The position numbers were made by a program, and so were the translations under genes. The notes under the pieces were generated by a model, which made no database searches, had not been told where the DNA came from, and was given only the letters and a program-made list of their open reading frames with translations. From the NCBI GenBank assembly GCA_945888575.1, contig CAMDAM010000001.1, positions 1 through 57,074 on the forward strand: DNA of 57,074 nt, read 5' to 3'. Positions 6,259 through 38,971 of this stretch are shown here, piece by piece; position 1 is the stretch's first letter; the number at the start of each line of letters is the position of its first letter. Origin of the DNA: Asaia bogorensis. Its GTDB lineage: Bacteria > Pseudomonadota > Alphaproteobacteria > Acetobacterales > Acetobacteraceae.

Positions 6259-6278
6259 GGTTAGTTTCCCCGAGGTTT

Positions 6279-6385
6279 AAGCAAGAATCTTCTTTTTCTG
6301 AAGAAAAAGAAGCAAAAAGACTTTTATCATTTTTCTGTCATAAAAGTTTTTTGGTTCTTTTTTTCAAAAAAGAACGTGCTTCCTT
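6279..6385 (+). repeat. AT-rich twin-hairpin repeat, composite B-spacer-A (copy 2)
   Basis: Unit B core at 6289-6323 (CTTCTTTTTC-TGAA-GAAAAAGAAG hairpin), a 16-nt spacer, and unit A core at 6344-6375. The GCTTCCTT tail overlaps the TAA stop (6384-6386, minus strand) of the amidase gene. Confidence 0.9.
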
Positions 6386-7817: not shown

Positions 7818-8645
7818 ATGAGCCAGATTCCCGAAAAGCCCGTGCTGCTCACCGGCGCCTCCGGCGGGCTCGGCCGCGTGCTGGCGCGTGGCCTGGGGGC
7901 CCTGGGGTGGAAGCTGGTGCTGACCGATATCGTGCCCTTCCCCGACCCGGTGCCGGCGGGAAGCCGCTTCGTGAAGGCGGACCTGAATGACGGCGTGACG
8001 ATCCTGCGCCTGGCCGAAGGCTGCGGCATGATCCTGCATTTCGGCGGCGTTTCAGTGGAGCGGCCGTTCGAGGAGGTGCTGGGGCCGAACATCCGCGGCC
8101 TCTACCACATCTACGAAGCCGCCCGCCGCGAGGGTGCGCGCGTGCTGTTCGCGAGCAGCAACCACGCCATCGGCTTCCACGAACGCAGCGAGGCGCTGGA
8201 CGACGACTGCCAGCTTCTGCCCGATGGCTATTACGGGCTTTCCAAGGCCTATGGCGAGCTGATGGGGCGGATGTACTGGTTCAAGCACGGGGTGGAGAAC
8301 ATCAACGTGCGGATCGGCAGTTCCTTCCCGGAGCCGATCGACGCGCGGATGCTCTCCACCTGGCTGAGCTACGACGACTTGGTGCGGCTATGCGTGCGGG
8401 CGACGCTGGCGGAACGGGTGGAGAGCTGCGTGATCTGGGGGGCTTCGGCGAACAGCCGGACGTATTGGGGCCGGGATGCGCGGGATACGCTGGGGTGGGC
8501 GCCGGAGGATAGTGCGGATGGGTTTGCGGGGCAGATGGGGGGGAAGGTGACGGGGGATGCGGTGATGGAGCGGTATCAGGGGGGGGCTTACACGGGGATG
8601 GAGTATTCTCGGGAGGGCGGGGTGCCGGGGAAGATGTTTCGCTAG
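7818..8645 (+). CDS. NAD-dependent epimerase/dehydratase (uronate-dehydrogenase-like extended SDR)
   Basis: MSQIPEKPVLLTGASGGLGR Rossmann motif and YGLSK catalytic Y-x3-K. AGGAGA RBS upstream of the ATG at 7818. The N-terminal extension of the track ORF (5916..) is GC shadow. Confidence 0.8.
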   Translation: MSQIPEKPVLLTGASGGLGRVLARGLGALGWKLVLTDIVPFPDPVPAGSRFVKADLNDGVTILRLAEGCGMILHFGGVSVERPFEEVLGPNIRGLYHIYEAARREGARVLFASSNHAIGFHERSEALDDDCQLLPDGYYGLSKAYGELMGRMYWFKHGVENINVRIGSSFPEPIDARMLSTWLSYDDLVRLCVRATLAERVESCVIWGASANSRTYWGRDARDTLGWAPEDSADGFAGQMGGKVTGDAVMERYQGGAYTGMEYSREGGVPGKMFR

Positions 8646-8722
8646 CTAGCACGCTTGACGTTTCCAGCTGGTCGAGCAAACATGATACCGTAATCAAAAT
8701 AAAATAGGAAAGTTCGTCGGCG

Positions 8723-9481
8723 ATGCCTCGAGAACCGAAAACCGTCGATGAGTTGCTTGAAGAGATAACGTGTGAATTGTCGCCAACTGGGCGCGCCGAA
8801 CGCGTGTTGCTGGGAGGATTCACGGGTCTCTATCAGGCCGCAGATAATTGGTGCTGGGCGGCTGCGGCTGCCACGGTTGCGACCTATTATGATCGCGTCA
8901 AGGTTCCCGCAGGAACACCTGTGCCGTCTGTCCCGCGGGCGCAATGCGGCCTGGTCGACGGCGGTTACTGTACCGGTGGACCTGCGTGCGCCAAGCACTT
9001 GGCCGGATATCCGAACTGCAACAGACTTAACGACTACGGTAGAATAGATTTTTCGTGCCATAATCCGGATTTCGACAGACAAGGCTTTCTTAACCGCATG
9101 CTGGCTCGCTTGGGGCGCCTTGAAGTGTCCCTGCCAATGCGGGCATCGCGGAGCCACCACATAACATTGTGGGAAACAGCCCCGGGCACTCAGAAAGTGG
9201 TCCCATCGCGGGATTACATGCTTCAGGCGACGGTGGATGTGGACCAGATCGCACGGCTGTTGAAAGACGGGCGACTTGTGTGCTTCCGATCTAAGCGCGG
9301 TGGGACTCGACACTTCATCATTGTCTACGGCTGCGAAACGTACCCAGATGTGTCGCTGCTTGTATGGGATCCTGCCAAAGGATCGGAGATCATCGAAGCT
9401 GAGCAGTTCCTTCACGAGTTCGGCCCGTTCACCCATATGATTGTAACCCGTGGCGATTGGCAGAAGCAGAATGTCAGTTAA
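8723..9481 (+). CDS. papain-like cysteine peptidase (AvrRpt2/C70- or C39-like), Cys-rich insert
   Basis: 252 aa. Q-x4-NWCWAAAAATV nucleophile motif. A downstream RHFIIVYG His and VWDP Asp lie ~20 residues apart, similar to the Cys-His-Asp spacing of AvrRpt2-type proteases. Five Cys in residues ~75-122 (nine in the whole protein). No signal peptide. Local GC about 47-50%. Confidence 0.65.
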   Translation: MPREPKTVDELLEEITCELSPTGRAERVLLGGFTGLYQAADNWCWAAAAATVATYYDRVKVPAGTPVPSVPRAQCGLVDGGYCTGGPACAKHLAGYPNCNRLNDYGRIDFSCHNPDFDRQGFLNRMLARLGRLEVSLPMRASRSHHITLWETAPGTQKVVPSRDYMLQATVDVDQIARLLKDGRLVCFRSKRGGTRHFIIVYGCETYPDVSLLVWDPAKGSEIIEAEQFLHEFGPFTHMIVTRGDWQKQNVS

Positions 9482-10064
9482 GATATACCCGGAGGATTAT
9501 CCTCCCGAAGCTCTTCAAGCTGCGAAGCGCAAGATAGAGGCGTTGCTGTCCTGGGAGGGGTTGGTTTCTCGGAACCCTGAAGCGGCTACCTTCCTCACAC
9601 TGCCGCACCGCGTTTATTTTTTGCGTTCGCGCGGACTTGCTGGTGTTGGGCCCCTTAGGGCCTCCGTCGACTTCGGTGGCTGGCGCTTTCTTGTCAGCCA
9701 GGAGGCCCAGGCGATTGCCGCTGTCACGACGTGGCAGGGTGATGGCGAATGGCGGGTATCCTCTGTTCGGCCGGGAACCTGGGCATCCGCAACGCGAGCC
9801 GCACTGACCGGGGAAGGTTTGGACGGGGGGCCATATACGCTGGCCTATCTCTGGTGCCGCAGGAAATTTGTGGCAGCCTTGTGGCTGCAAACTGAAAGTG
9901 GACAAGGGGAGAAGGTTATCCCCTTGCCGTATGTTCGCGGACTGACGGCACTGCGCCCAACAACCCCCGACGCATATCTTGAGGCAATGCGTCGCCCTAC
10001 GTCCCACGCTCCGGGTATAGTTGCTGCAGCGCGGGCAGACCGACTCAGCCCGTTAGGTGGATAA
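9471..10064 (+). CDS. hypothetical protein, translationally coupled partner of the cysteine peptidase
   Basis: The ATG at 9471 overlaps the upstream stop by 11 nt (ATGTCAGTTAA); an alternative GTG lies at 9450. 197 aa, with no recognisable motif, signal peptide or TM segment. Confidence 0.55.
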   Translation: MSVKIYPEDYPPEALQAAKRKIEALLSWEGLVSRNPEAATFLTLPHRVYFLRSRGLAGVGPLRASVDFGGWRFLVSQEAQAIAAVTTWQGDGEWRVSSVRPGTWASATRAALTGEGLDGGPYTLAYLWCRRKFVAALWLQTESGQGEKVIPLPYVRGLTALRPTTPDAYLEAMRRPTSHAPGIVAAARADRLSPLGG

Positions 10065-10100
10065 AGAAAGGGCCCATCGGACGGGGTTATCCGATGGGCC
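10061..10100. terminator. hairpin terminator between convergent island genes
   Basis: GGCCCATCGGA-cggggtta-TCCGATGGGCC (11-bp stem, 10071-10100). On the minus strand it is followed by CTTTCTTTAT. A second 9-bp hairpin (10137-10161) sits 7 nt past the PAP2-like stop codon. Confidence 0.6.
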
Positions 10101-10167
10101 AGAGGTGCTTATCAGGCAGTGGGCGACGGATCGAACCCTCCGTCCATCAGGGGGACGGAGGCTCTAT

Positions 10168-11400
10168 CTAATGTCCGCTGCGATCCTTGCTCCGCTGCGA
10201 TAGCGGGGCGTCTCCCTCGGGCAGGCGTGCCCGGTCCGCCTCTTTTGGCGCTGGATAGCTCGCGACCTTCGTGCCGAGGGTCCGCAGGGTCGCTCCGGCC
10301 CTAAGCAACTGATGGGATGGAGACTTTTCATCTGGCAACTTCGCGTCTTCGGCTTTGTCGGGCACATAAACAGGTATGCCATCGCCGTCCTTGTTGCTTA
10401 CCTCCTCCCATTCCTTCCTGGCGCGGTCCAGTATGATGGTAAATGATTTCATACGCAGGAGCACATCCATTACAGTCGGGACAACACTCCAGCTTCCTTC
10501 CTTGTCGGAGGGCCAGTGGACGCCAGCGCGCTCACGATTCACCGGAATCTCCTCCGAGAGAGCCCGCAGAACCTTCGCCATGGCGGGTGCCGCCTCACGC
10601 ACGCAATGTTCGATGAGGTAGGCTTGCAAGGCATGGCCGCTGGGATAGGCCGGATGCGCAGGCGTATCGATCATGGGGGAAATGCCCGGCCAAACCTGTG
10701 CCGGGCGGGGGCGCATGAACTCCGCCTTGAACCGCGCCGCAATCATGCCGGCCACCTGCAGCCCAATCAGCACCAAGCTCCATGTTGCCGGCCTGGTCGC
10801 GGGCGAACAAGCTAGAAGATCAGCATAGTAGGTGGTGAAATCGCCCGCTTGTGCCAGTATCGCACCCTGATGCCGGGGGCCTCGTTCAGTGAGGCGCAGA
10901 TCACGCAAATGCGCCAGTTCCTTCCTCACCGCATCAGGGCTTTGGTCCAGCTTGCCTTTGAGCAGGTCCCGCATCGTATCCCAGGCACAGCGGCCAGTCC
11001 CATCCATCTTGGCAGCTTCAATCGCGAAATCGGTAGCGATCACAGCAGCCTTCAGCAGCGGGTCCCAGCCGTCCTCGGGGAAGGTGGTGTTGACGATCAT
11101 TGGGGCCGAGATAGCGGACTGCCCTGCATGGCGTGGCAGCGCCGCACCGATCAGGGTGGGCCCTCCACGCAGGGAACCGAGCCCACCCGGCACCCAGTAC
11201 CAGCCTTGCGGACGTCCGCCACTCTGACCACCGCTTTGACCACCACTCTGGCCGCCCGATTGCCCGCCGCTCTGGCCGCCATAGGAGGCATCGATCGTAT
11301 CGTCGACCGCATCCCCAATAGCTCCAAGAATCGTATCGGGGAGCCTATCAATCGTCTTTTGTAGTGCTGCGATCGCTTCAATCAGTTTGTCATCAGCCAT
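10168..11400 (-). CDS. PAP2 superfamily protein (acid phosphatase / vanadium-haloperoxidase-like) with N-terminal (GGQS)5 repeat
   Basis: 410 aa carrying the three PAP2 motifs: K-AEFMRP-RP (Kx6RP), PAYPSGHA (PSGH) and NRERAGVHWPSD (Rx5Hx3D). No TM helices or signal peptide are evident. GGGGGGA RBS upstream. Confidence 0.75.
   Translation of the reverse strand: MADDKLIEAIAALQKTIDRLPDTILGAIGDAVDDTIDASYGGQSGGQSGGQSGGQSGGQSGGRPQGWYWVPGGLGSLRGGPTLIGAALPRHAGQSAISAPMIVNTTFPEDGWDPLLKAAVIATDFAIEAAKMDGTGRCAWDTMRDLLKGKLDQSPDAVRKELAHLRDLRLTERGPRHQGAILAQAGDFTTYYADLLACSPATRPATWSLVLIGLQVAGMIAARFKAEFMRPRPAQVWPGISPMIDTPAHPAYPSGHALQAYLIEHCVREAAPAMAKVLRALSEEIPVNRERAGVHWPSDKEGSWSVVPTVMDVLLRMKSFTIILDRARKEWEEVSNKDGDGIPVYVPDKAEDAKLPDEKSPSHQLLRAGATLRTLGTKVASYPAPKEADRARLPEGDAPLSQRSKDRSGH
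11215..11280 (-). repeat. 12-nt in-frame tandem repeat encoding (GGQS)5
   Basis: Five imperfect copies of GGYGGNCARWSN lie inside the PAP2-like CDS. The synonymous differences between copies keep the peptide repeat perfect. Confidence 0.9.
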
Positions 11401-11433
11401 TCATTCCCCCCGCCCTTTCGGGCCATTGAACAT

Positions 11434-13398
11434 TCATTCCGGCAATCCCGCCAGAATCAGATGCCGCCCGTAAGCCTCCCGTCGCCACGCATCACGGAAC
11501 GGGCTGTTCTGGACCACGTCGCGCACGCGCTGGTCCGGTATCTCCCGCATCGCCCGCTCGGCGATCTGGCGGGCCTGTGCCAGGTCCCCGGCCGCCGCCA
11601 GCGAGGCAGCGGTCCAGCGCAGACCCACGCGCAGGTAGGAGGGTTCGGCAATGGCCTTCAGCCCCCATTGGGCCGCGATATCGTATTCACCGGCGGTGTA
11701 GTGGGCCACGCACAGCGTGCTGTAGAAATCGTGCGCGTCGCGGTCGCGAGGTGAAAGCTCCATGGCACGGGTCACGCGCCGGACCGCTTCCTGCGCCTCG
11801 CCGGCATAGGACCAAGTGTAGCTGCTCCACAGCCACATATGCGCCGAGCCGGGCCAAGATTGGTTGCCGCGATCGAACAGCTCCATGGCGCCTTCGATGT
11901 CGCGATGGTGCAAGGCGCGGCGGTGGGCGTGGAACATCAAAGCGCGGCAGTTCTCGGCATCCAGGGCCAAGGCGCGGTTTGCCTCCGCTTCGGTGGCCGC
12001 AACCGCTTGGCGGCGGTCCTGCCGCCACCCCTGGCTGAGCGACAGCGTATGCCAATCGGCCAACAGGGCATGGGCATCGGGATAGTCCGGCTCGGCACGC
12101 ACGATCTCGTCCAGGAGGGTTTTGGCCTGGTCGAAACTCTCTCGTTGCAGAACCTGGAGATGCTCGCGCGCCAGCAGCGCCTTTTCGTAGACGGTGAGGC
12201 TTTCGGGCCGCTTCCCCCGAATGCGCTTCAGCTCCAGCTCCTGCACCCGTGGGGCCAGGGTGTTCACGATCTGCGCCACCAGCCGATCCTGGTCGGCAAA
12301 ATCCAGCGTGGCCGAGGTGTCGTGCGTCCGCGCCCAAACCACCGCGCCGGTGCGGGCATCGGCCAGTTCCGTGGTCAGCCGCAGCACGTCGCCGCGCCGG
12401 CGCATGGACCCGCGCACCACGTAGCGCGCGCCCAGCTCGCGCCCCACCTGGCGCAGGTCAACCTGCGGGTCCCGATAGGTGAGGGAGGAGCCGTGCGAGA
12501 TCACCTGCAGTTCGCGCAGCCCGGCCAGCTGGCACACCGTGTCCACCAGGATGCCGTCGGCGATGTGGCTCGGCACCGCCTCGTCGCCCAGTTGTGCGAA
12601 CGGCAGCACGGCGATCTGCGGTGGCGCACCCACGGGCGTCGGTTCCGTGCGCGGCGGCTCGGGAAGGACAGGGGGATCCATCTCCGCGCGCAGCCGCCGG
12701 GCGATCTCACGCGTCTGCGCACCGGGGTTGATCCCCAGCTCGCGCTTCATCATCTCGGCAATCGCGGCGTAGTGGCGTAGCCCGTCAGCCCGCCGGCCCG
12801 CCGCGCCGCAGGCATCCAGCAGGCGGCAATGGATCTCCTCGCGCAGCGGGTCGATCGCGAACATCCGTTCGGCCGCTTCCAGCGCCGCGGCGGCATCGCC
12901 TGCCGCGGTGCAGAGCTCGCCGATGCGGGCCAGCACCGCCAGCACCTTGCGCTCCAGGTCGGCGCGGCTCGGTACCAGCCAGTCGGCGAAATCCTCCTCC
13001 ACATGCGGGAACCCGGCCAGCAGCGGCCCGGCATAGGCTTGCACCGCCTGGCGCAGCCCAGCGAGATCCTCGGCCAAGGCGTGGCGCTCGAACTCCTCCA
13101 CGTCGGTCGCCACATCCTCGCCCAGCGTCAGCGCCCCATCCTGGGAGACGACAACCTGCCGCCCGCGCAGGGGCCGGCGCAGTGAATAGAGTGCCTCGCG
13201 CAGGCTGCCCTGGATCTGCTTTGGCCCGCTGTTCGGCCACAACAGCTCCGCCACCCGCTCCCGCGCCATCGGCCGGCCACGATCCACCGCCAGCACGGCC
13301 AGCAGGGCGCGCGTTTTGCGGGGCAGCGGCGGGCCCTCCTGGCCGTCCACCCGCAGCCCGAAGCCGCCGAGAAGGTTGAGACGAACGCCTGTCATCAC
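11434..13398 (-). CDS. SARP/BTAD-family transcriptional regulator with TolB-like and TPR domains
   Basis: 654 aa. N-terminal OmpR-type winged helix (LNLLGGFGLRVDG..RKTRALLAVLAV..LWP), then a BTAD region, a TolB-N-like block (IAVLPFAQLGDE...YVVRGSMRRRGDVLRLTTELADARTGAVVW) and C-terminal TPR-like repeats. Confidence 0.8.
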   Translation of the reverse strand: MMTGVRLNLLGGFGLRVDGQEGPPLPRKTRALLAVLAVDRGRPMARERVAELLWPNSGPKQIQGSLREALYSLRRPLRGRQVVVSQDGALTLGEDVATDVEEFERHALAEDLAGLRQAVQAYAGPLLAGFPHVEEDFADWLVPSRADLERKVLAVLARIGELCTAAGDAAAALEAAERMFAIDPLREEIHCRLLDACGAAGRRADGLRHYAAIAEMMKRELGINPGAQTREIARRLRAEMDPPVLPEPPRTEPTPVGAPPQIAVLPFAQLGDEAVPSHIADGILVDTVCQLAGLRELQVISHGSSLTYRDPQVDLRQVGRELGARYVVRGSMRRRGDVLRLTTELADARTGAVVWARTHDTSATLDFADQDRLVAQIVNTLAPRVQELELKRIRGKRPESLTVYEKALLAREHLQVLQRESFDQAKTLLDEIVRAEPDYPDAHALLADWHTLSLSQGWRQDRRQAVAATEAEANRALALDAENCRALMFHAHRRALHHRDIEGAMELFDRGNQSWPGSAHMWLWSSYTWSYAGEAQEAVRRVTRAMELSPRDRDAHDFYSTLCVAHYTAGEYDIAAQWGLKAIAEPSYLRVGLRWTAASLAAAGDLAQARQIAERAMREIPDQRVRDVVQNSPFRDAWRREAYGRHLILAGLPE

Positions 13399-13528: not shown

Positions 13529-14608
13529 ATGGCGTTGCGCTCCGATGCCGTGGCCGGCGCAGTCCCGCGCCGCTCAGCCGGAGATGCCGCCGTGTCAGTC
13601 ACCGCCCCCCCTGCACCGTCCGTGGGCCTGCCCGCCGTCCCCGTGGCGTTGCGTCCGATGCACGAGCCGGCGTTGCACGACCCTGTCGGCCTGCTCGATT
13701 CCACCCGCGACCGCATCCTGGCCGGCGGAGACATCGCCCAGGCGGTGGATATCCTCAGCGACGGGCTGTGGTGGATGCGCGCCGGCTTGCCGGAAGACGA
13801 GTGGAAGCAGGTGATCGCCCTGGTGCGCGCCCATCCGCTGATGGGGCTGATGCACGAGAACCCCTTCACCCGCCGCGCCTTCGTCAAGCCCCGCGGCTAT
13901 GCCGGCGATGCCCCGCTGATCGACCTGCTCTACTACGGCCAGGCCGCCGCCGAGGCGAAGGACGCCTCGCCCCTTGGCCTTGCCCTGCTGGCACGCGATA
14001 CCGGCGCGCCCGCCGCCGCCGCGGTGCGCGAACGGCGGGATTTCATGGCCGAGCTGATCGACCATGTGGCGGATGCCACGCCCATGCCCAGCATCCTCGC
14101 CGCCGCCTGCGGGCACCTGCGCGAGGGGCTGGTTTCCACCGCCGTGCAGCAGCACCGCATCGGCCGGCTGGTGGCGCTGGACCAGGATGCGGATTCGCTG
14201 GCCGTTGTCGGCAAGTCCTTCGGCATCAAGGGCGCGGAGATGGTCAACCGCAGCATCAAGGCGGTGCTGGACGGCAGCTTGAAGCCGGGCAGCTTCGACA
14301 TGGTCTATGCCGCCGGGCTCTACGACTATCTCGGCCAGCGCCTGGCCAGCGCGCTCACCGCCGCGTTCTTCGGGCTGCTGAAGCCGGGCGGGCGGCTGGT
14401 GATCGGCAACTTCGCGCGTGGCATCTACGACGCCGCCTACATGGAGGCGATCGGCGACTGGTTCCTGATCTACCGCGACGCCGCCGAAATGCAGGACCTG
14501 GCCAGCGGGATCGATGCGCGCGAAGTGGCGCTGAAGCGCGTCTATACCCGCCAGAGCCCGGACATCTTCTACCTGGAACTGCGCCGCCGCGGCACGCTCG
14601 CGGCCTGA
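13529..14608 (+). CDS. class I SAM-dependent methyltransferase (PhcB / 3-hydroxy fatty acid methyl ester synthase-like family)
   Basis: Conserved KPRGYAGDAPLIDLLY block, SAM motif I-like ILAAACGHLREG, and an acidic loop DMVYAAGLYDYL. The start is uncertain (ATG at 13529 or 13658). The track start at 13316 would overlap the divergent regulator. Confidence 0.6.
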   Translation: MALRSDAVAGAVPRRSAGDAAVSVTAPPAPSVGLPAVPVALRPMHEPALHDPVGLLDSTRDRILAGGDIAQAVDILSDGLWWMRAGLPEDEWKQVIALVRAHPLMGLMHENPFTRRAFVKPRGYAGDAPLIDLLYYGQAAAEAKDASPLGLALLARDTGAPAAAAVRERRDFMAELIDHVADATPMPSILAAACGHLREGLVSTAVQQHRIGRLVALDQDADSLAVVGKSFGIKGAEMVNRSIKAVLDGSLKPGSFDMVYAAGLYDYLGQRLASALTAAFFGLLKPGGRLVIGNFARGIYDAAYMEAIGDWFLIYRDAAEMQDLASGIDAREVALKRVYTRQSPDIFYLELRRRGTLAA

Positions 14609-14628: not shown

Positions 14629-15786
14629 ATGATGAGCGACATGCGCATGCCGCGCGCCGCGCCACCGCACCGGGGCCTGCCCAGCGGCGGCGGGCGCACG
14701 GTGCTGGGGTTGGCGGGGCCCCTCGCCGCCCCGGTTCGGCGGCCACGGCCGCAGCTGGCCGCGCAGGGGCTGGAGATCGAGGGCCCGGTGCCGATCCCGG
14801 GCGAGTACCGCCCGGGCACGGCTGGCTTCCGCTACTGGGCGGTGGCCGAGGCACTGGAACGCGGCGCGGCGCTGTGGCGCGCGGCGGCCGAGTTCCCCTG
14901 GGCCTGGGCCGGCGGCCGGCTGCGCGTTCAGCTCATCGGCGGCACGGATGCGGTGTGCGAACGGGGGTGGCTGCGGCTCGGGGCCGGCGCGCCGCACGCA
15001 GCGGCAATGCGCGCCCTGGGCCACGCGGTGCTGGACGGGCTGCGCCCGGCCCTGTGGCATGTGGCGGCGCCGGATGTCGCCAGCTTCCACGCCGGTTTTG
15101 CCGACGCCGTGGCGATGCTGGCAACGCTAGAGATCTCAGGCACGGCAGACGTCGTTCCACAGGCCACCACGCCGTTCGGCCGGGCCTTCGCGGAGGTGCT
15201 GGTGGTGCTGGCACAGTCCGGCCCGGCCGCGCGGCGCCGGCCCGATCCGCGGCTGCTGGCGCTGCGCGGCGCCCGCCTGCTGGCCGATGCAACCCGCCGC
15301 GCCCCCGTGGCGCCCGATTTCACCGCCCAGGTCGCCGCCGAGATGGCCCTCGCCGCCACGGTGCAGGAAGGCCCGCTGGTCGCCCTACAGCTGCGAGACC
15401 TGTTCGCCCGCCACTTCCTGCTGGCCCGCAGCCCGGTGCTGGAAGCCTACGACCCCCATTTGGCGGAAGACGGCACGGAGCTGCCGCTGCCGGCGTGCTC
15501 CCTGCCCTGGGTCGCCACCGATGCCGCCCCCTTGGGCCTGGACCTGCCGCTGCTCCTTTGCCCCGCCACGCAGCCGCCGCTGGTGGCGCCCTCGGCCGAC
15601 GCCCCTGCCCCGGCGGCTGCCGCCCAAGGCTTCGCACAGAGCCTGTTCGCATCCGGCATGGTCGAAAAGCCGCGCATCGGGCGGCTGCAGCGCCGCGCAC
15701 CTGGCACCAACGCGCTGGCCACGCACCTGCTGCTGGATGACGGCCGCACGCTGCGCCTGGTGCGGGAGCGTTTCGTGGCCGGATAG
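14629..15786 (+). CDS. hypothetical protein, possible degenerate thermolysin-like (gluzincin) fold
   Basis: ATG at 14629 with a GGGGGA RBS, 20 nt after the methyltransferase stop. The segment MRALGHAVLDG-x17-SFHAGFADAVA parallels HExxH-x19-NExFSD of the M4 family, but the first His and the Glu are replaced (RALGH). Confidence 0.5.
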   Translation: MMSDMRMPRAAPPHRGLPSGGGRTVLGLAGPLAAPVRRPRPQLAAQGLEIEGPVPIPGEYRPGTAGFRYWAVAEALERGAALWRAAAEFPWAWAGGRLRVQLIGGTDAVCERGWLRLGAGAPHAAAMRALGHAVLDGLRPALWHVAAPDVASFHAGFADAVAMLATLEISGTADVVPQATTPFGRAFAEVLVVLAQSGPAARRRPDPRLLALRGARLLADATRRAPVAPDFTAQVAAEMALAATVQEGPLVALQLRDLFARHFLLARSPVLEAYDPHLAEDGTELPLPACSLPWVATDAAPLGLDLPLLLCPATQPPLVAPSADAPAPAAAAQGFAQSLFASGMVEKPRIGRLQRRAPGTNALATHLLLDDGRTLRLVRERFVAG

Positions 15787-18576: not shown

Positions 18577-19563
18577 ATGACCGGCTCCAACCCACCCGGG
18601 GCCACCGCGTACGGCCCGGCCAAGCTGCCGCTGTTCGAGGTGCGGCTGCCCGCGCCCGACCTCGCGCCCTGGCACGCCGGCAACACCGGCATCCCCGGCT
18701 TCACCAGCTTCGCCGCCGAGGCCCCGGGCCCGCACGTGCTGCTGCTATCCCTGATGCACGGCAACGAATACGCCGGCGCCACCGTGTTGGATCGCATGCT
18801 GCGCGCGAAGCTGCGCCCGCTCTGCGGCCGGCTCACCTACGGCTTCGCCAACCTCGCCGCCTTCGCCGCCTTCGATCCCGCCAACCCCACCGCCTCGCGC
18901 TTCCTGGACGAAGACCTCAACCGCGTCTGGGACCCTGCCCTGCTCGACGGCCCGCGCCACTCCGCCGAACTCGCTCGCGCCCGCGAAATCCGCCCGGCCG
19001 TGGAAGCGGCAGACGTGGTGCTCGACCTGCACTCGATGCTCTGGCCCTCCGATCCGCTGATCCTGTGCGGCGCCGCCGCCCGTGGCCGCGCCCTGGCCCA
19101 GGCCGTTGGCGCCCCCGCGCTTGCCGTGGCCGATCGCGGCCACACCAACGGCCCCCGCCTGATCGACCTGCCGCGCTTCGCCCTGCCCGAGGGCGCCGCC
19201 ACCGCCCTGCTGGTGGAATCCGGACAGCACTGGGACCCCGCCGCGGTGGACATGGCCGCCGCCAGCATCGCCGGCCTGCTGCGCCATCTCGGCCTGCTGC
19301 GCGCCCACCCCACCCTGCCCGCTCCCGCGCCGCAACCGGGCCGCGTCGCCGAAGTCACCCAGGCCGTCACTGCCGCCACCGGCAACTTCGCCTTCGTGCG
19401 CGCCTTCCGCGGCGGCGAAGTCATCCCCCGCCGCAACACGCTGATCGCGCTGGATGGCACCGAGGAAATCCGCACCCCGCACGACGACTGCCTGCTGGTG
19501 ATGCCCAGCCTGCGGCCGAGCCGGGGGCATACGGCGGTTAGGCTGGCTCGGTTCGTGGAGTAA
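18577..19563 (+). CDS. succinylglutamate desuccinylase/aspartoacylase family (M14-like) protein
   Basis: 328 aa with HGNEYAG zinc motif and DLHS. Confidence 0.75.
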   Translation: MTGSNPPGATAYGPAKLPLFEVRLPAPDLAPWHAGNTGIPGFTSFAAEAPGPHVLLLSLMHGNEYAGATVLDRMLRAKLRPLCGRLTYGFANLAAFAAFDPANPTASRFLDEDLNRVWDPALLDGPRHSAELARAREIRPAVEAADVVLDLHSMLWPSDPLILCGAAARGRALAQAVGAPALAVADRGHTNGPRLIDLPRFALPEGAATALLVESGQHWDPAAVDMAAASIAGLLRHLGLLRAHPTLPAPAPQPGRVAEVTQAVTAATGNFAFVRAFRGGEVIPRRNTLIALDGTEEIRTPHDDCLLVMPSLRPSRGHTAVRLARFVE

Positions 19564-19566
19564 AGA

Positions 19567-19695
19567 AAGGAAGCGGTTCTTTTTTGAAAAAAAGAACCAA
19601 AAAACTTTCATTCGTCTGAGGCGGTAAGACCGGGCTTCTCCGCATCAAACGAATGAAGTCTTTTTGCTTCTTTTTCTTCAGAAAAAGAAGGACTT
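19567..19695 (-). repeat. AT-rich twin-hairpin repeat, composite in reverse orientation (copy 3)
   Basis: Reverse complement of unit A (core 19576-19607, tail AAGGAAGC starting 3 nt after the TAA at 19561-19563), a 47-nt spacer, and reverse complement of unit B (19656-19690) ending at the stop of the convergent crotonase gene. Confidence 0.9.
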
Positions 19696-21771: not shown

Positions 21772-22410
21772 ATGGACGACGCCGATCTCGCCCTGATCAT
21801 CGCGCTGGACTGCTCCGCCAGCGTCTCGCTGGAGAGCTTCGGCCGCATGGCCAGCGGCTGTGCGGCGGGCATGCGCGACGAAGCCGTGATCGCCGGCCTG
21901 CTCTCCGGCCCGCGCGGCGCCAGCCTCTGCGCCCTCATGATCTGGTCCGGCCCCACTGCGCAGGAAGTGATGACGGGCTGGACCCGCCTCGCCAGCCCCG
22001 AAGCCCTGCACGCCTTCGCCGAGGAGGTGGAGAACGTCCCCCGCACCATCCGCGCCGGGGCCACCGCGGTGGGCGAGGCCCTGCGCGCCTGCGAAACCCT
22101 GATCCTCGCCGCCCCCGCCGGCGCCACCCGCGTGGTGATCGACATGGTCGGCGACGGCAAATCCAACCAGGGCATCCTGCCCCACGTCCCGCGCGACCGC
22201 CTCGTGGCCGGCGGCGTCACCATCAACGGCCTGTGCGTATTGCACGAGGAGCCGGACCTGCTGGCGCACTACCAACAGGAGGTGATCGGCGGCCCCGGCG
22301 CCTTCGCCATGACCTGCCAGAACTTCGCCGAGTTCGAGGAAGCGATGCGCCAGAAGCTGCGGCGCGAGATCATCGCATCGCTAGGCAAGAAAGAGTCTTC
22401 TTTTTTCTGA
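21772..22410 (+). CDS. DUF1194 (vWA-like) domain protein
   Basis: 212 aa with LALIIALDCSASVS, VIDMVGDGKSNQG, INGLCV and VIGGPGAF blocks typical of DUF1194. The last ~8 codons and the TGA stop lie inside repeat unit B. Confidence 0.7.
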   Translation: MDDADLALIIALDCSASVSLESFGRMASGCAAGMRDEAVIAGLLSGPRGASLCALMIWSGPTAQEVMTGWTRLASPEALHAFAEEVENVPRTIRAGATAVGEALRACETLILAAPAGATRVVIDMVGDGKSNQGILPHVPRDRLVAGGVTINGLCVLHEEPDLLAHYQQEVIGGPGAFAMTCQNFAEFEEAMRQKLRREIIASLGKKESSFF

Positions 22411-22526
22411 AGAAAAAAGAAGCAAAAAAGACTTCATTCGCTTGCACGCGTGCTGGTCGCCCTGCACGCGTGCCAGTGAACAAAAGTTTTTTGGTTCTTT
22501 TTTTCAAAAAAGAACCGCTTTCTTCC
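22387..22526 (+). repeat. AT-rich twin-hairpin repeat, composite B-spacer-A (copy 4)
   Basis: Unit B at 22397-22434 has one extra T and one extra A in opposite stem arms, so the stem is 11 bp. The 46-nt spacer holds two copies of TGCACGCGTGC. Unit A core is at 22484-22515, and its tail abuts the stop (22526-22528) of the SBP gene. Confidence 0.9.
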
Positions 22527-26144: not shown

Positions 26145-26146
26145 CT

Positions 26147-26278
26147 AAGCAAGACTCTTCTTTTTCTGAAGAAAAAGAAGCAAAAAGACTTTTGTTCGTT
26201 CGCCGGCCACAGAGACCGTATGCAAAGTCCCAAAAGTTTTTTGGTTCTTTTTTTCAAAAAAGAACATGCTTCCTTGCC
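26147..26278 (+). repeat. AT-rich twin-hairpin repeat, composite B-spacer-A (copy 5)
   Basis: Unit B core at 26157-26191, a 38-nt spacer, unit A core at 26234-26265. It fills the whole ybaB-recR intergenic gap. Confidence 0.9.
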
Positions 26279-26605
26279 TTAGAACGGCAGCTTCATCCCC
26301 GGCGGAATCGGCAACCCCGCCGTCAGCTTCTGCATCTCGTCCTGGCTGTTGGCTTCCACCTTGCGCTTGGCATCGTTATGCGCCGCCAGCACCAGGTCCT
26401 GCAGCATCTCGGCATCGCCGCCTTCGCCCACCAGCTTGGGGTCGATCAGGATCGAGCGCATCTCGCCCTTCCCGTTCAGCGTCACCTGCACCATGCCGGC
26501 GCCGGCCTGGCCCTGGATTTCCAGAGCCGAGAGCTTTGCCTGCATCTCCTCCATCTTCTGCTGCATCTGGGAGGCCTGCTTGAGCATGCCGGCGAGGTTC
26601 TTCAT
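26279..26605 (-). CDS. ybaB: YbaB/EbfC family nucleoid-associated protein
   Basis: 108 aa, [22 protein letters not shown]..., in the conserved position between dnaX and recR. Confidence 0.95.
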
Positions 26606-28476
26606 GGCGAGGTGTCCCAGCTATCGAAATCGTCGGAGGCGTTGAACCCGTCCTCATCGGGCGGGGCGAATTCAAGGTCGTCGGCCGGCGGCGCGTCCTG
26701 CAGCAGGCTCGCGGGTTCGGCGGGCAGGCCATAGGCATCGGTGCGGCTGTCATGCACCGCCTCGATCTTTGCGCCCGGGAAGGCGGCCAGGATCGCCTGC
26801 ACAAGCGGATGCTGGGCGGCGGTCTGGCGCCGTGCCGTGTCCGCGGCACTGCCCTGCTCGGCCAGGGTCAGCTCGCCCGCCTGGGCCGAGAGCGCGATGG
26901 TCCAGCGCACGCCGGTCGCCTCCCCCAGCACAGCCGAAAGCCGGGCCGCCAGGTCGCGCGGCGCCTCGGCCTGCGGCCGCAGCTCGATCACCGGCGGGGC
27001 GTAGCGCACCAGGTGCACGGAATGAACGAGATGGGCATGCAGCGAGGGCTCCCGCTGCTCCGCCACCAACGCTGCCACCTCGCGGAAACTCGCCGGCAGC
27101 CGCGCCGCCGCGGGCACGGCCATCACGGCCCCACCCCCGCCAGCCATGGCCCGCGCCCCGCCACCACCATTGCCCGAAGGCGCAGGTGACCCACCGCCAG
27201 AGACCGCACCGCCCTCGGTCAGGCGGCGCACCAGATCCCCCGGCGGCGGCAAATCGGCCACGTGGCACAGCCGTATCAGCACCATCTCGGCCGCCGCCTT
27301 GCGGTCGGGCGAGGTCTCCACCTCCGCCACGCCCTTCAGCAGCATCTGCCAGGCCCGGCCCAGCACCGGGATGGTCAGCGCCTCGGCCAATGCCACGCCA
27401 CGGGTGCGCTCGGCCTCGGGAAGATCGTTGGAGGTGCGCAGCGCCGGCACCGCCCGCAGGCGCGTCAACGTATGCACCAGCTCCAGCAGGTCCTGCAGCA
27501 TCACGCCGAGGTCAGCACCCCGCGCATGCGCCCGGTCGGTCAGCTCCAGCGCCGCGGCCGGCTTGCCCGCCATCACCGCCTCGAACAGGTCGAACACCGC
27601 CTCCCGATCCGCCAGGCCCAGCATGTCGCTCACCTGGCCGCCGGTGATCGTCACGCCGGCCTCGGTCTGCGCAATCGCCTGGTCCAGCAGCGAAAGCCCA
27701 TCGCGCGCCGAGCCATCCGCCGCCCGCGCGATCAGCGTCAGCGCCTCCGGCTCGATCCGCGCCCCTTCCTTCTCGCAGATCCGCCCGAAATGCCCGGCCA
27801 GCTCGGCGGTGGCGATGCGCCTGAGATCGAAGCGCTGGCAGCGCGACAGCACCGTCACCGGCACCTTGCGGATCTCGGTGGTGGCGAACACGAACTTCAC
27901 ATGCGGCGGTGGTTCCTCCAGCGTCTTCAGCAGCGCGTTGAACGCGTTGCGCGACAGCATGTGAACCTCGTCGATCACGAACACCTTGGCCCGCGCCTGC
28001 ATGGGGCGGAAGCGCGTGGCCTCGATGATCTCGCGCACATCCTCCACGCCGGTGCGGCTGGCGGCGTCCATCTCCACCACGTCGGGGTGGCGGTCGGCCA
28101 GGATGCCGGTGCAGTTGGCGCACACGCCGCATGGGTCGGCGGTAGGGCCGCCATTGCCGTCCGGCCCGATGCAGTTCAGCGCGCGGGCGATGATGCGCGC
28201 CGTGGTGGTCTTGCCCACCCCGCGCACACCCGTGAGCATGAAGGCATGCGCCACCCGGCCCAGCGCGAAGGCGTTGCGCAACGTGCGCACCATCGCCTCC
28301 TGCCCGATCAGGTCATCGAACACCGTGGGGCGGTATTTGCGCGCCAGCACGCGGTAGGCGGGGGTGGCGAGCGCGGGCGCCGGGGCGGCAGCCGGCTCGG
28401 CCTCGCCGAACAGCCCGGGGCCTGCCGGTTCCGGCGGCGGCAGCTTGTCGTCTTCATCTGAGAACAAGCCCGACAT
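26602..28476 (-). CDS. dnaX: DNA polymerase III subunit gamma/tau
   Basis: AAA+ clamp-loader motifs ([23 protein letters not shown], zinc module CGVCANC). Start [10 protein letters not shown] at 28476, with an upstream alternative at 28545. ATGA overlap with ybaB. Confidence 0.9.
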
Positions 28477-28531
28477 GCGCGGCGCCGATGATTGCTGCCG
28501 AAGGCAGGGGCCCAAGGCGGGGGGAGAGGGT

Positions 28532-28628
28532 GGGAGGCCGAACAAACGACCCGAGCGGAAACTCGTTGCGGCTGCTTCCTTCCGGACCTGACCGGGTTGG
28601 CGAGGCGCCCGTCCGCCGCCGACCTCCC
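28532..28628 (-). ncRNA. ffs: signal recognition particle RNA (small bacterial SRP / 4.5S type)
   Basis: The minus strand reads GGGAGGUCG...GGUCAGGUCCGGAAGGAAGCAGCC...CGGCCUCCC. It contains the universal domain IV motif, and the 9-bp terminal helix closes a ~97-nt hairpin. ffs upstream of dnaX is a common arrangement. Confidence 0.85.
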
Positions 28629-37952: not shown

Positions 37953-37999
37953 GAAAGTTTTTTGGTTCTTTTTTTCAAAAAAGAACCGCTTCCTTCGCC
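37953..37999 (+). repeat. AT-rich hairpin repeat, solo unit A (copy 6)
   Basis: Core at 37955-37986 is identical to the other copies. The tail CGCTTCCTTCGCC ends at the TGA (38000-38002, minus strand) of qor. Confidence 0.9.
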
Positions 38000-38971
38000 T
38001 CAGGGCACCAGGACGGTGCTGCCCGTGGTTTGGCGGGCTTCGAGGGCGGTATGAGCCGCGGCGGCGTTGGCCAGCTTGAAGGTTTGGTTGACGCGGATCT
38101 TCACCGCGCCTTGGCGCACCACGTCGAACAGGTCGTTGGCGGTGGCGACGAGGTCGGCGCGCTTGGCGGTGTAGGTGTTCAGCGTGGGGCGGGTGAGGAA
38201 CAGGCTGCCCTTGGCGGCGAGGATGCCGATATCCACCGGCGGGACGGGGCCGGAGGCGTTGCCGTAGCTGACCATGAGGCCGAGCGAGGCCAGGCAATCC
38301 AGGCTGGCGCCGAAGGTGTCGCGGCCGATGCTATCGTAGACCACGGGCACCATGGCGCCGCCGGTGAGGCGCTTCACCTGGGCCGGCAGGTCGCCGTAGC
38401 CGACCACGGCATGGGCGGCGCCATGTTCCATAGCGAGCTGGGCCTTCGCTTCGGTGGAGACGACGGCGATGACGCTGGCGCCGAGGTGCTTGGCCCATTG
38501 GCACATGATGAGGCCGACGCCGCCGGCCGCGGCATGGACCACGATGGTGTCGCCGGCCTTCACCTTGTAGGTGCGGCGCAGCAGGTATTGGGCCGTCATG
38601 CCCTGGAGCATCATGGCGGCGCCGGTGGTGGCATCGATATCGTCCGGCAGGACCACGAGGCGGTCGGCGGCGATGGCGCGTTCGGTGGCGTAGGCGCCGA
38701 TGGGGCCGCCGGCATAGGCGACGCGGTCGCCGGGCTTCACTTCGGTGACGCCGGCGCCGACGGCGAGGACCACGCCCGCGCCTTCCATGCCCGGGGTGGC
38801 GGGCAGCGGGGCCTTGTAGAGGCCGGTGCGGAAATAGACGTCGATGTAGTTCAGGCCGACGGCCTCATGGCGGACCAGGGCCTCGCCGGGGCCGGGCTCG
38901 GGCGTGGGCACATCCTCCCAGAGCATCACCTCGGGGCCGCCGTTGGCATGGATGCGAATGGCCTGGGTCAT
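38000..38971 (-). CDS. qor: NADPH:quinone oxidoreductase (zeta-crystallin-type MDR)
   Basis: 323 aa with MDR pattern, AAAGGVG nucleotide motif, and N-terminal GPEVMLWEDV. Confidence 0.85.
   Translation of the reverse strand: MTQAIRIHANGGPEVMLWEDVPTPEPGPGEALVRHEAVGLNYIDVYFRTGLYKAPLPATPGMEGAGVVLAVGAGVTEVKPGDRVAYAGGPIGAYATERAIAADRLVVLPDDIDATTGAAMMLQGMTAQYLLRRTYKVKAGDTIVVHAAAGGVGLIMCQWAKHLGASVIAVVSTEAKAQLAMEHGAAHAVVGYGDLPAQVKRLTGGAMVPVVYDSIGRDTFGASLDCLASLGLMVSYGNASGPVPPVDIGILAAKGSLFLTRPTLNTYTAKRADLVATANDLFDVVRQGAVKIRVNQTFKLANAAAAHTALEARQTTGSTVLVP

Follow-up and report, generated by a model that had tools for sequence, protein, structure and literature searches.

Evidence for a resident, multi-allelic locus of freshwater Acetobacteraceae/Rhodospirillales that encodes a papain-like peptidase and a candidate neutralizing partner

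Why does a stretch of unusually low GC content lie among ordinary chromosomal genes in a GC-rich alphaproteobacterial genome? The stretch in question, positions 8646 to 11433, belongs to a window of 57,074 nucleotides that forms the start of contig CAMDAM010000001.1 in the Asaia bogorensis assembly GCA_945888575.1. It carries a cassette of three genes, coding for a papain-like cysteine peptidase, an overlapping partner protein, and, on the opposite strand, a soluble protein resembling PAP2-type phosphatases. A first-pass annotation, made from the letters of the window alone, had taken the stretch for an island of old or non-canonical acquisition, perhaps with an effector/immunity or defense-type cassette on board. 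Our analysis lends good support to a different view of its origin: the low-GC stretch is one allele of a multi-allelic locus that resides throughout a lineage of freshwater Acetobacteraceae/Rhodospirillales, and not an inserted island. As for its role, the peptidase may be a protease held in check by its partner.

Synteny and allelic divergence of the locus

The site is occupied in relatives. Directly after the same epimerase (SDR) gene, the cassette is present in 10 other contigs (L005/L014, L007/L008, L010, L011/L013, L015, L017, L025-L027, L028, and L030), which were found by protein-identity look-ups and pattern scans; the short ones show a part of the arrangement. On all six contigs long enough, the cassette is followed by the same SARP-TPR regulator gene, of which L011/L013 contain only the 3' end. 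The shared order consists of genes for an abhydrolase, an amidase, and the epimerase, then the peptidase and partner genes, and then, facing these, the PAP2-like gene and the regulator gene; beyond the regulator come a divergent methyltransferase-like gene, a gene for a 385-residue protein, and MlrC. Among the ten other contigs we found no empty site between epimerase and regulator. The related contigs stem from freshwater and other metagenomes and, where a taxon is given, from metagenome-assembled genomes (MAGs) of Acetobacteraceae or Rhodospirillales. A metagenome scan with the peptidase alignment yielded only three further short loci. The window allele itself also recurs: contig L001 from ENA encodes the identical peptidase and matches the window with 99.6% identity over 19.3 kb, and three shorter contigs from other samples have 100% identity to it across the cassette. 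Because ten contigs carry the locus after the same epimerase gene, its position is conserved; the codon usage of the window allele is not host-like. The proposed acquired island is thus not borne out; homologous genes stand at the site in all ten contigs, and what would have been acquired is an allele, by homologous replacement.

The first-pass annotation was right that the composition is strongly atypical. The stretch has a GC content of 59.5%, compared with 70.7% upstream of 8645, and in sliding windows across the whole 57 kb (mean, 0.689; standard deviation, 0.025) the lowest value, 0.595, belongs to the 2.8-kb window starting at 8601 and lies 3.8 standard deviations under the mean. The drop to 47% reported for the 60-nucleotide windows 8641 to 8700 and 9001 to 9060 was reproduced (46.7% in both); the reported low GC content from 9.6 to 11.4 kb is real too, but it amounts to 61.6% for 9600 to 11400 and not to 57 to 60%. 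The anomaly is concentrated at third codon positions, with a third-position GC content (GC3) of 0.61 in the peptidase gene, 0.58 in the partner gene, and 0.66 in the PAP2-like gene versus 0.87 to 0.90 in all neighboring genes. Its left edge coincides exactly with the stop of the epimerase gene at 8645, as had been noted. The right end had been placed at 11433; judged by identity and GC3, the variable tract continues to approximately 12380, within the C-terminal (TPR) half of the regulator gene, where GC3 is 0.81 versus 0.87. The intergenic segment that opens the stretch (8646 to 8722, plus strand; 46.7% GC) is both the leader of the peptidase operon and the left recombination boundary. All three cassette open reading frames (ORFs) are intact and are also called by public pipelines. 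The lack of mobility genes and direct repeats had been seen correctly: there is no integrase or transposase among the genes neighboring the cassette, direct or inverted repeats at the borders match at chance level only, and a tRNA scan and an Rfam scan gave no match in the region.

Most of the other low-GC 60-nucleotide windows are explained by an AT-rich intergenic repeat family of about 130 nucleotides, flanked by the palindromes CTTCTTTTTCTGAAGAAAAAGAAG and GGTTCTTTTTTTCAAAAAAGAACC, which has the look of repetitive extragenic palindromic (REP) or miniature inverted-repeat transposable (MITE) elements. Copies lie at 6278 to 6385, 19561 to 19690, 22383 to 22524, and 26146 to 26281, with half copies at 224 to 274 and 37954 to 38003, and the family is absent from the 8646-to-11433 region.

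Among the related contigs, the proteins encoded in the flanks are 80 to 98% identical, against 24 to 53% for the peptidase, 35 to 68% for the partner, 51 to 70% for the PAP2-like protein, and 62 to 81% for the regulator. Even the closest relative, L005/L014, with flanks that are 96 to 98% identical at the protein level and approximately 92% at the nucleotide level, has a nucleotide identity of 30 to 70% across the cassette and the adjoining 3' half of the regulator gene (0.51 to 0.77 there). On the left the boundary is sharp. Identity to the relatives collapses within about 40 nucleotides of the epimerase stop, and that to L005/L014 within a few bases, at 8645 to 8660; the blastn alignments of L005, L010, L011, L025, L026, and L027 end at 8605 to 8659, and the sliding identity to L005 drops from 0.94 to 0.5. 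On the right the recovery is graded and complete at about 12385, beyond which identity is mostly 0.83 to 0.97, in the part of the gene that encodes the winged helix-turn-helix (wHTH) and BTAD domains, with a dip in identity to L005 to 0.67 to 0.71 at 12585 to 12784. The aligned sequences thereby demonstrate breakpoints at the stop codon of the epimerase gene and inside the regulator gene.

How old are these differences? Between the window and L014, the synonymous divergence (dS) is 0.17 to 0.26 in the flanks and saturated in the cassette (>1.6 or undefined). Within one allele class the picture is another: L005 and L030 differ with a dS of 0.32 to 0.38 in the cassette and 0.28 to 0.29 in the flanks, with ratios of nonsynonymous to synonymous divergence (dN/dS) of 0.25 to 0.27 and 0.16 to 0.18, respectively, and L010 and L013 likewise have similar dS values in cassette and flank, with dN/dS ratios of 0.45 to 0.49 versus 0.14 to 0.23. 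The groupings also disagree. By their flanks, the window, L014, and L015 belong together, as do L028 and L010; by their cassettes, L010 groups with L013, and L014 groups with L028 and L030. At the level of sequence, these comparisons demonstrate alleles that have diverged much further than their host genomes have, synonymous sites included. The saturated cassette dS, the within-class dS close to that of the flanks, and the incongruent groupings together argue for ancient alleles that are swapped by homologous recombination. We hypothesize that the population retains old allele classes and that the conserved flanks allow homologous recombination to exchange them among related lineages. What sets the near-identical L005 and L007 apart is a tract that covers no more than the partner gene and the 3' portion of the PAP2-like gene. 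Within the cassette, the divergence of the peptidase correlates with that of the partner (Spearman coefficient of 0.63 over 36 pairs). Most other alleles have GC3 values of 0.71 to 0.83 and that of L015 is host-like (0.86 to 0.91), so that the window allele is the most AT-rich one seen; its composition fits either an import from a carrier with lower GC content or long residence in a rarely recombining class.

A foreign island that had entered between the SDR and regulator genes, in an old or non-canonical event, would account for the compositional deviation (GC3 of 0.58 to 0.66 versus 0.9) and for the sharp left edge. It is nevertheless very improbable, considering that homologous genes fill the site in ten other contigs and no empty site was found, that the deviation extends into the resident regulator gene, that no integrase, tRNA, or repeat accompanies it, and that the L015 allele has host-like GC3. 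More far-fetched still is a relaxation of constraint, by which dispensable genes drift towards AT and decay in the absence of any special selection. This would agree with the elevated dN/dS (0.25 to 0.49 versus 0.14 to 0.23 in the flanks) and with the lower GC3 of most alleles, but dN/dS stays well under 1, and all alleles retain full-length ORFs, the invariant peptidase residues C44, H197, and D216, intact PAP2 motifs, and translational coupling of peptidase and partner. Moreover, decay cannot yield saturated dS beside a flank dS of 0.17 to 0.26, and the peptidase-partner pair is conserved across phyla, as described below. The island and simple decay are thus largely excluded.

The peptidase and its partner

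The first gene of the cassette (8723 to 9481, plus strand) encodes a papain-like cysteine peptidase of the C70/C39 type with 252 residues and a hypervariable, cysteine-rich center. It passes the cut-off of the Pfam family Peptidase_C70 (24.3 bits; cut-off, 19) and stays just under that of C39 (21 bits). Residues Q38, C44, H197, and D216 are invariant across 10 alleles, giving the order Cys-His-Asp with a Gln upstream of the Cys, and the equivalent residues are invariant in a multi-phylum set of peptidases too; the Peptidase_C70 score and the invariant triad confirm the peptidase gene of the first-pass annotation. The hypervariable insert, which is rich in indels and cysteines, spans residues 60 to 170 approximately. 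The peptidase profile found nothing among PDB sequences at E-values up to 10. An AlphaFold2 (AF2) model was poor, with a predicted local distance difference test (pLDDT) score of 52, and its order of secondary structures is compatible with the fold: a helix with the Cys, followed by a beta-sheet with the His and the Asp. Its top Foldseek matches were papain-like (the C39 domain of PCAT1, 9l5u, 8ssm, and Tse1), all with E-values of at least 0.03; given the pLDDT of the model, these hints carry little weight.

The second gene (9471 to 10064, plus strand) encodes the putative cognate partner, a protein of 197 residues that is translationally coupled to the peptidase. The start codon ATG at 9471 is preferable to GTG at 9450 and leaves an overlap of 11 nucleotides with the end of the peptidase gene, as expected from the overlapping partner gene first noted; overlaps of 4 to 11 nucleotides occur in the window and in most relatives. 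Neither Pfam, NCBIfam, PADLOC, and PHROGs nor PDB sequences at E-values up to 10 gave a match to the partner. Its AF2 model is confident (pLDDT, 84), and Foldseek searches of PDB and BFVD with this model returned no match under an E-value of 0.05. An exhaustive profile search defined a partner family of 595 representative clusters, mostly stand-alone proteins of approximately 200 residues, with the motifs PH, WR, and ALWL kept across phyla. We discarded the idea that the partner is a Cys/His enzyme, since C129 is not conserved beyond the local clade.

The pair has a life of its own outside this lineage. In 7 of the 7 other contexts examined, namely, two Chloroflexota MAGs, two metagenome contigs of unassigned origin, a Nocardia plasmid, plasmid pRlvC of Rhizobium leguminosarum, and a replicon of Azospirillum oryzae, the partner homologue is encoded directly downstream of a C70-type peptidase. 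In one of the unassigned contigs the partner domain opens a protein of 547 residues. The distant paired peptidases match Peptidase_C70 with up to 37 bits and match C39_2 as well; the cysteine pattern QC...CC...CN is common to them, and hhalign comparisons with the window peptidase family gave probabilities of 98.9% and 99.95%. Since a peptidase gene lies directly upstream in every readable distant context and its homology is confirmed, we consider the pair an autonomous, multi-phylum module. The peptidases of Nocardia and Rhizobium have approximately 500 residues and are fused to long repeat regions. In R. leguminosarum (pRlvC, NZ_CP025505.1, 36.4 to 43.1 kb), the pair is found one gene downstream of Septu genes (PtuA, E-value of 3e−228; PtuB, 4e−104), and on the Nocardia plasmid NZ_CP109569.1 it is near relaxase genes and a gene for a PycTM-like Pycsar effector. 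A tblastn search of plasmids with the window peptidase and partner gave no match; only more distant family members match plasmids. In none of the seven contexts is the pair accompanied by a PAP2-like protein or a SARP regulator. Of the co-occurrence elsewhere that the first-pass annotation had left to gene-neighborhood searches, these contexts show that of the pair; the three genes recur together, as a real unit, in the complete module described next.

The PAP2-like protein, the regulator, and the six-gene module

The peptidase-partner unit and the PAP2-like gene converge on two stable hairpins, in agreement with the initial observation. Hairpin 1 (10071 to 10100), with a 12-bp stem and a T-run on the minus strand, folds with −23 to −24 kcal/mol, and hairpin 2 (10137 to 10161), with a 9-bp stem, with −18 to −19 kcal/mol; both are convergent terminators by their appearance. 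The gene beyond them (10168 to 11400, minus strand) encodes a soluble protein of 410 residues that resembles PAP2 and class A acid phosphatases. Its parts are a helix at the N-terminus, the linker (GGQS)5, the conserved motif GW[YF]WVPGG, the catalytic core, and, at the C-terminus, a basic tail that is hypervariable. The PAP2 signatures KxxxxxxRP, PSGH, and SRxxxxxHxxxD are present as KAEFMRPRP, YPSGHA, and NRERAGVHWPSD and are kept in all alleles. The score against Pfam PAP2, 24.5 bits, is under the gathering cut-off of 27.2; five homologues pass with 34 to 48 bits, and one fails. Acid phosphatases in the PDB matched with E-values of 1e−11 to 1e−6, the best being 7f18 (1e−11). There is no transmembrane segment (maximum KD19 hydropathy, 1.56), which together with the three motifs upholds the soluble PAP2-like protein of the first-pass annotation, and no N-terminal hydrophobic segment that could serve as an export signal; the protein begins with an acidic amphipathic helix, and (GGQS)5 comes next.

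Among the alleles, the catalytic core is 75 to 92% conserved, and the variable parts are the N-terminal helix, the number of repeats, and the basic tail of about 80 residues, which retains a semi-conserved terminal motif. The linker is encoded by a 12-nucleotide tandem repeat (11216 to 11275, minus strand) with 3 to 9 copies and with units of GGQS, GGQN, GGQT, or GGHN, depending on the allele; these differences in copy number and unit suggest slippage. A word-based search with the full PAP2-like sequence was swamped by the GGQS repeat and missed syntenic homologues, which were recovered through synteny. Like the class A acid phosphatases PhoN and PhoC (PDB accession numbers 7f18 and 2a96), the protein has a soluble helical core and all three PAP2 signatures. 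Enzymes of that class are periplasmic, whereas the PAP2-like protein has no signal peptide, is co-transcribed with a transcription factor, and adds the N-terminal helix, the (GGQS)n linker, the GW[YF]WVPGG motif, and the long hypervariable basic tail. We also considered a colicin-like bacteriocin with a glycine-rich N-terminal translocation domain and set it aside, retaining it only as a variant of the toxin reading, as the resemblance is one of composition.

The PAP2-like gene starts 33 nucleotides past the stop of the regulator gene on the same strand, which places it in the transcription unit of the regulator. It is therefore grouped with the regulator rather than with the peptidase pair, and the functional unit exceeds three genes. 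The regulator has two parts with different histories. The N-terminal wHTH and BTAD (SARP) half (12381 to 13398, minus strand) is conserved like the flanks; it matches Pfam BTAD (E-value, 3e−20) and, weakly, Trans_reg_C (16.7 bits), and residues 7 to 239 align with EmbR (PDB accession number 2fez; E-value, 7e−12). The C-terminal TPR half (11434 to 12380, minus strand; identity of 0.51 to 0.77 to L005) is hypervariable and contains the right-hand recombination breakpoints. The window regulator is a mosaic: in the N-terminal half its nearest relative is L014 (88%), and in the TPR half it is L010 (84%).

Divergent from the regulator gene lies a gene for a class I S-adenosylmethionine (SAM)-dependent methyltransferase-like protein (13529 to 14608, plus strand), which matches Pfam Methyltransf_11 and Methyltransf_25 weakly and is 81 to 97% identical among relatives. 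It does not look like a GGQ methylase of the PrmC type, considering that there is no NPPY motif and that some alleles have GGH instead of GGQ repeats. The next gene (14629 to 15786, plus strand) encodes the 385-residue protein (g385), a multi-allelic member of the module that is 88% identical to that of L014 and 43 to 45% identical to those of L028, L010, and L017, with a dS of 1.09 between L028 and L010. Searches of Pfam and PDB gave no match to it; we take its stretch GHAVLD...FHAGFAD to resemble a degenerate thermolysin-type HExxH...NEAxSD site. Scans with PADLOC 2.0 and PHROGs found no match for peptidase, partner, or PAP2-like protein, and PADLOC found none for the 385-residue protein and only marginal ones for the regulator (E-value, 0.0099) and the methyltransferase-like protein (1e−4).

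The same six genes are present on an 89,684-bp contig of GCA_041443025.1, between flagellar (fliP) and spermidine-synthase genes, with an extra gene for an S8 peptidase and an ORF of 52 residues between the methyltransferase-like and regulator genes. Because they stay together in this second chromosomal context, we regard the six genes as one module. The window is itself a contig from a metagenome (ENA ERZ27280278, k141_534769). The genes around the cassette and the sampled ORFs elsewhere are ordinary chromosomal ones, such as dnaX, leuS, mnmG, cheA, and a porin gene; the bacterial small signal recognition particle (SRP) RNA (28530 to 28627, minus strand) lies immediately upstream of dnaX (26602 to 28545, minus strand), an ordinary arrangement.

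A protease with a candidate neutralizing partner

What might the locus do? The overlapping peptidase and partner genes are best read, with a probability of roughly 0.5, as coding for a protease with a cognate neutralizing partner of the toxin/immunity type, close to the effector/immunity module that the first-pass annotation had named as one possibility. The peptidase would be toxic or otherwise dangerous unless held by the cognate partner, and the partner would be the neutralizing protein, an immunity protein or inhibitor, as in the pairs Cpe1/Cpi1 or staphopain/staphostatin. The specificity between peptidase and partner would drive their co-diversification and maintain the allele classes. 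In this lineage the pair would form one module with a soluble PAP2-type phosphatase, the regulator co-transcribed with it, and two further genes. The TPR sensor half and the termini of the phosphatase would vary as the pair does, because they interact with it directly or simply because they are linked to it.

Precedents for such pairs exist. C70-type papain-like peptidases include toxins of type VI secretion systems (T6SS) and contact-dependent inhibition (CDI) systems, which are followed by immunity genes for proteins of 79 to 239 residues with co-varying identity; Cpe1, EvpQ, and TsaP are papain-like protease toxins that act between bacteria and cleave at double-glycine motifs, and Cpi1 neutralizes Cpe1 through competition for the substrate site (PMC12136450, PMC7991086). 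The locus resembles these systems in its C70/C39-related domain with a Cys-His-Asp triad, the small unrelated gene immediately downstream, the correlated divergence of both genes, the patchy distribution over several phyla, and the atypical composition. It differs from them in having a stand-alone peptidase of 252 residues with a cysteine-rich hypervariable insert and in lacking any carrier or neighbor of the PAAR, VgrG, Rhs, or CdiA type. Compared with Cpe1/Cpi1 in particular, there is no detectable sequence similarity, the partner forms its own family of 595 clusters, and the pair is inside a six-gene regulator/phosphatase module. Membership of a Cpe1/Cpi1-type family is therefore not established. 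The second parallel concerns gene order. Staphopain is a papain-like cysteine protease that is co-transcribed with a specific protein encoded directly downstream, and this protein, like the window partner, is without a signal peptide. Staphopains are Sec-secreted pro-enzymes and staphostatins are beta-barrels of approximately 110 residues, whereas the window peptidase has neither signal peptide nor pro-region and its partner, with about 200 residues, has no fold match in the PDB. Altogether, the pair seems to represent a family not described before, within a known theme, and its form with six genes, a linked regulator, and multiple alleles is a new variant of that theme.

Several observations weigh against a neutralized toxin. 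No delivery apparatus (PAAR, VgrG, Rhs, CdiA/CdiB, or secretion genes) was found around the cassette, in 10 sampled larger ORFs, or in the related loci, and the neighborhood is that of an ordinary chromosome. Peptidase and partner lack signal peptides. The conservation of PH, WR, and ALWL exceeds that of most immunity families, so the partner may have an activity of its own, and no candidate immunity gene adjoins the PAP2-like gene. PDB searches with E-values up to 10 revealed no sequence similarity to Cpe1/Cpi1, 9l5u included. Finally, physical linkage would be enough to explain why the TPR half varies together with the cassette.

We weighed two other functions for a peptidase that varies together with its neighbors. 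An anti-phage abortive-infection module, in which the protease would be the effector and the partner its sensor or keeper, with hypervariability arising from an arms race with phages, is suggested by the position of the pair one gene downstream of Septu in R. leguminosarum and near a PycTM-like effector in Nocardia, by the fusion of both of these peptidases to beta-propeller-like repeats, a common sensor architecture, and by the patchy distribution across phyla, plasmids included. We think it rather unlikely, as such defense-adjacent contexts were seen only twice and the neighbors in the lineage of the window are metabolic, the cassette proteins match none of the PADLOC or PHROGs models, and defense systems usually vary by presence or absence rather than as ancient alleles of a fixed locus. 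The alternative to defense is a regulatory circuit like those of pherotypes or kin recognition, with components that co-diversify into specificity groups. The agr and comQXPA pherotypes and bacteriocin/immunity loci are hypervariable specificity loci, and the window locus shares with them a fixed position, deeply diverged shared alleles, breakpoints inside a sensor or regulator gene, and a variable sensor part next to a conserved DNA-binding or output part. Its components are different, namely, a SARP-TPR regulator, a PAP2 phosphatase, and a C70 peptidase in a Gram-negative alphaproteobacterium, and no signal molecule or precursor was identified. In such a circuit, a GG-specific C39-type peptidase would process the (GGxx)n N-terminus of the PAP2-like protein or another signal, the partner would gate the protease, and the TPR domain of the regulator would sense the product or bind the variable tail of the phosphatase. 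That the hypervariable tract takes in the TPR half of the regulator and not its DNA-binding half would then make sense, as would the co-transcription of the PAP2-like gene with the regulator gene, the 3 to 9 double-glycine repeats in every allele, the semi-conserved end of the hypervariable tail, and the occurrence of all six genes in a second genomic context; relatives of the peptidase class do cleave at GG motifs (PMC12136450). Several facts make the circuit doubtful nonetheless: the pair stands without a PAP2-like protein or SARP regulator in all seven contexts outside the lineage, the residues preceding the first GG fit a classic double-glycine leader poorly, a more distant PAP2-like relative with a glycine-rich N-terminus has no peptidase nearby, and linkage alone accounts for the co-variation. 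In its most ambitious form, which is equally speculative, the circuit would be a new alphaproteobacterial specificity system, in which protease, gatekeeper partner, phosphatase, and TPR sensor interact physically and form incompatible groups that are subject to frequency-dependent selection and shuffled by recombination.

In summary, our work recasts an apparent island as a fixed-site locus with at least 10 deeply diverged alleles in an abundant freshwater lineage. As the alleles come from metagenome series, tracking their frequencies could probe frequency-dependent selection directly. The analysis also defines a widespread, unannotated two-gene module of a C70-type protease and a partner of about 200 residues, with 595 clusters and with cultured carriers in R. 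leguminosarum UPM791, A. oryzae KACC 14407, and Nocardia sp. NBC_01377. If the regulator and the phosphatase participate, the module would represent a new specificity circuit. If the partner neutralizes the peptidase, as we favor, the pair would represent a branch of the protease toxin/immunity theme that is independent of a delivery system.

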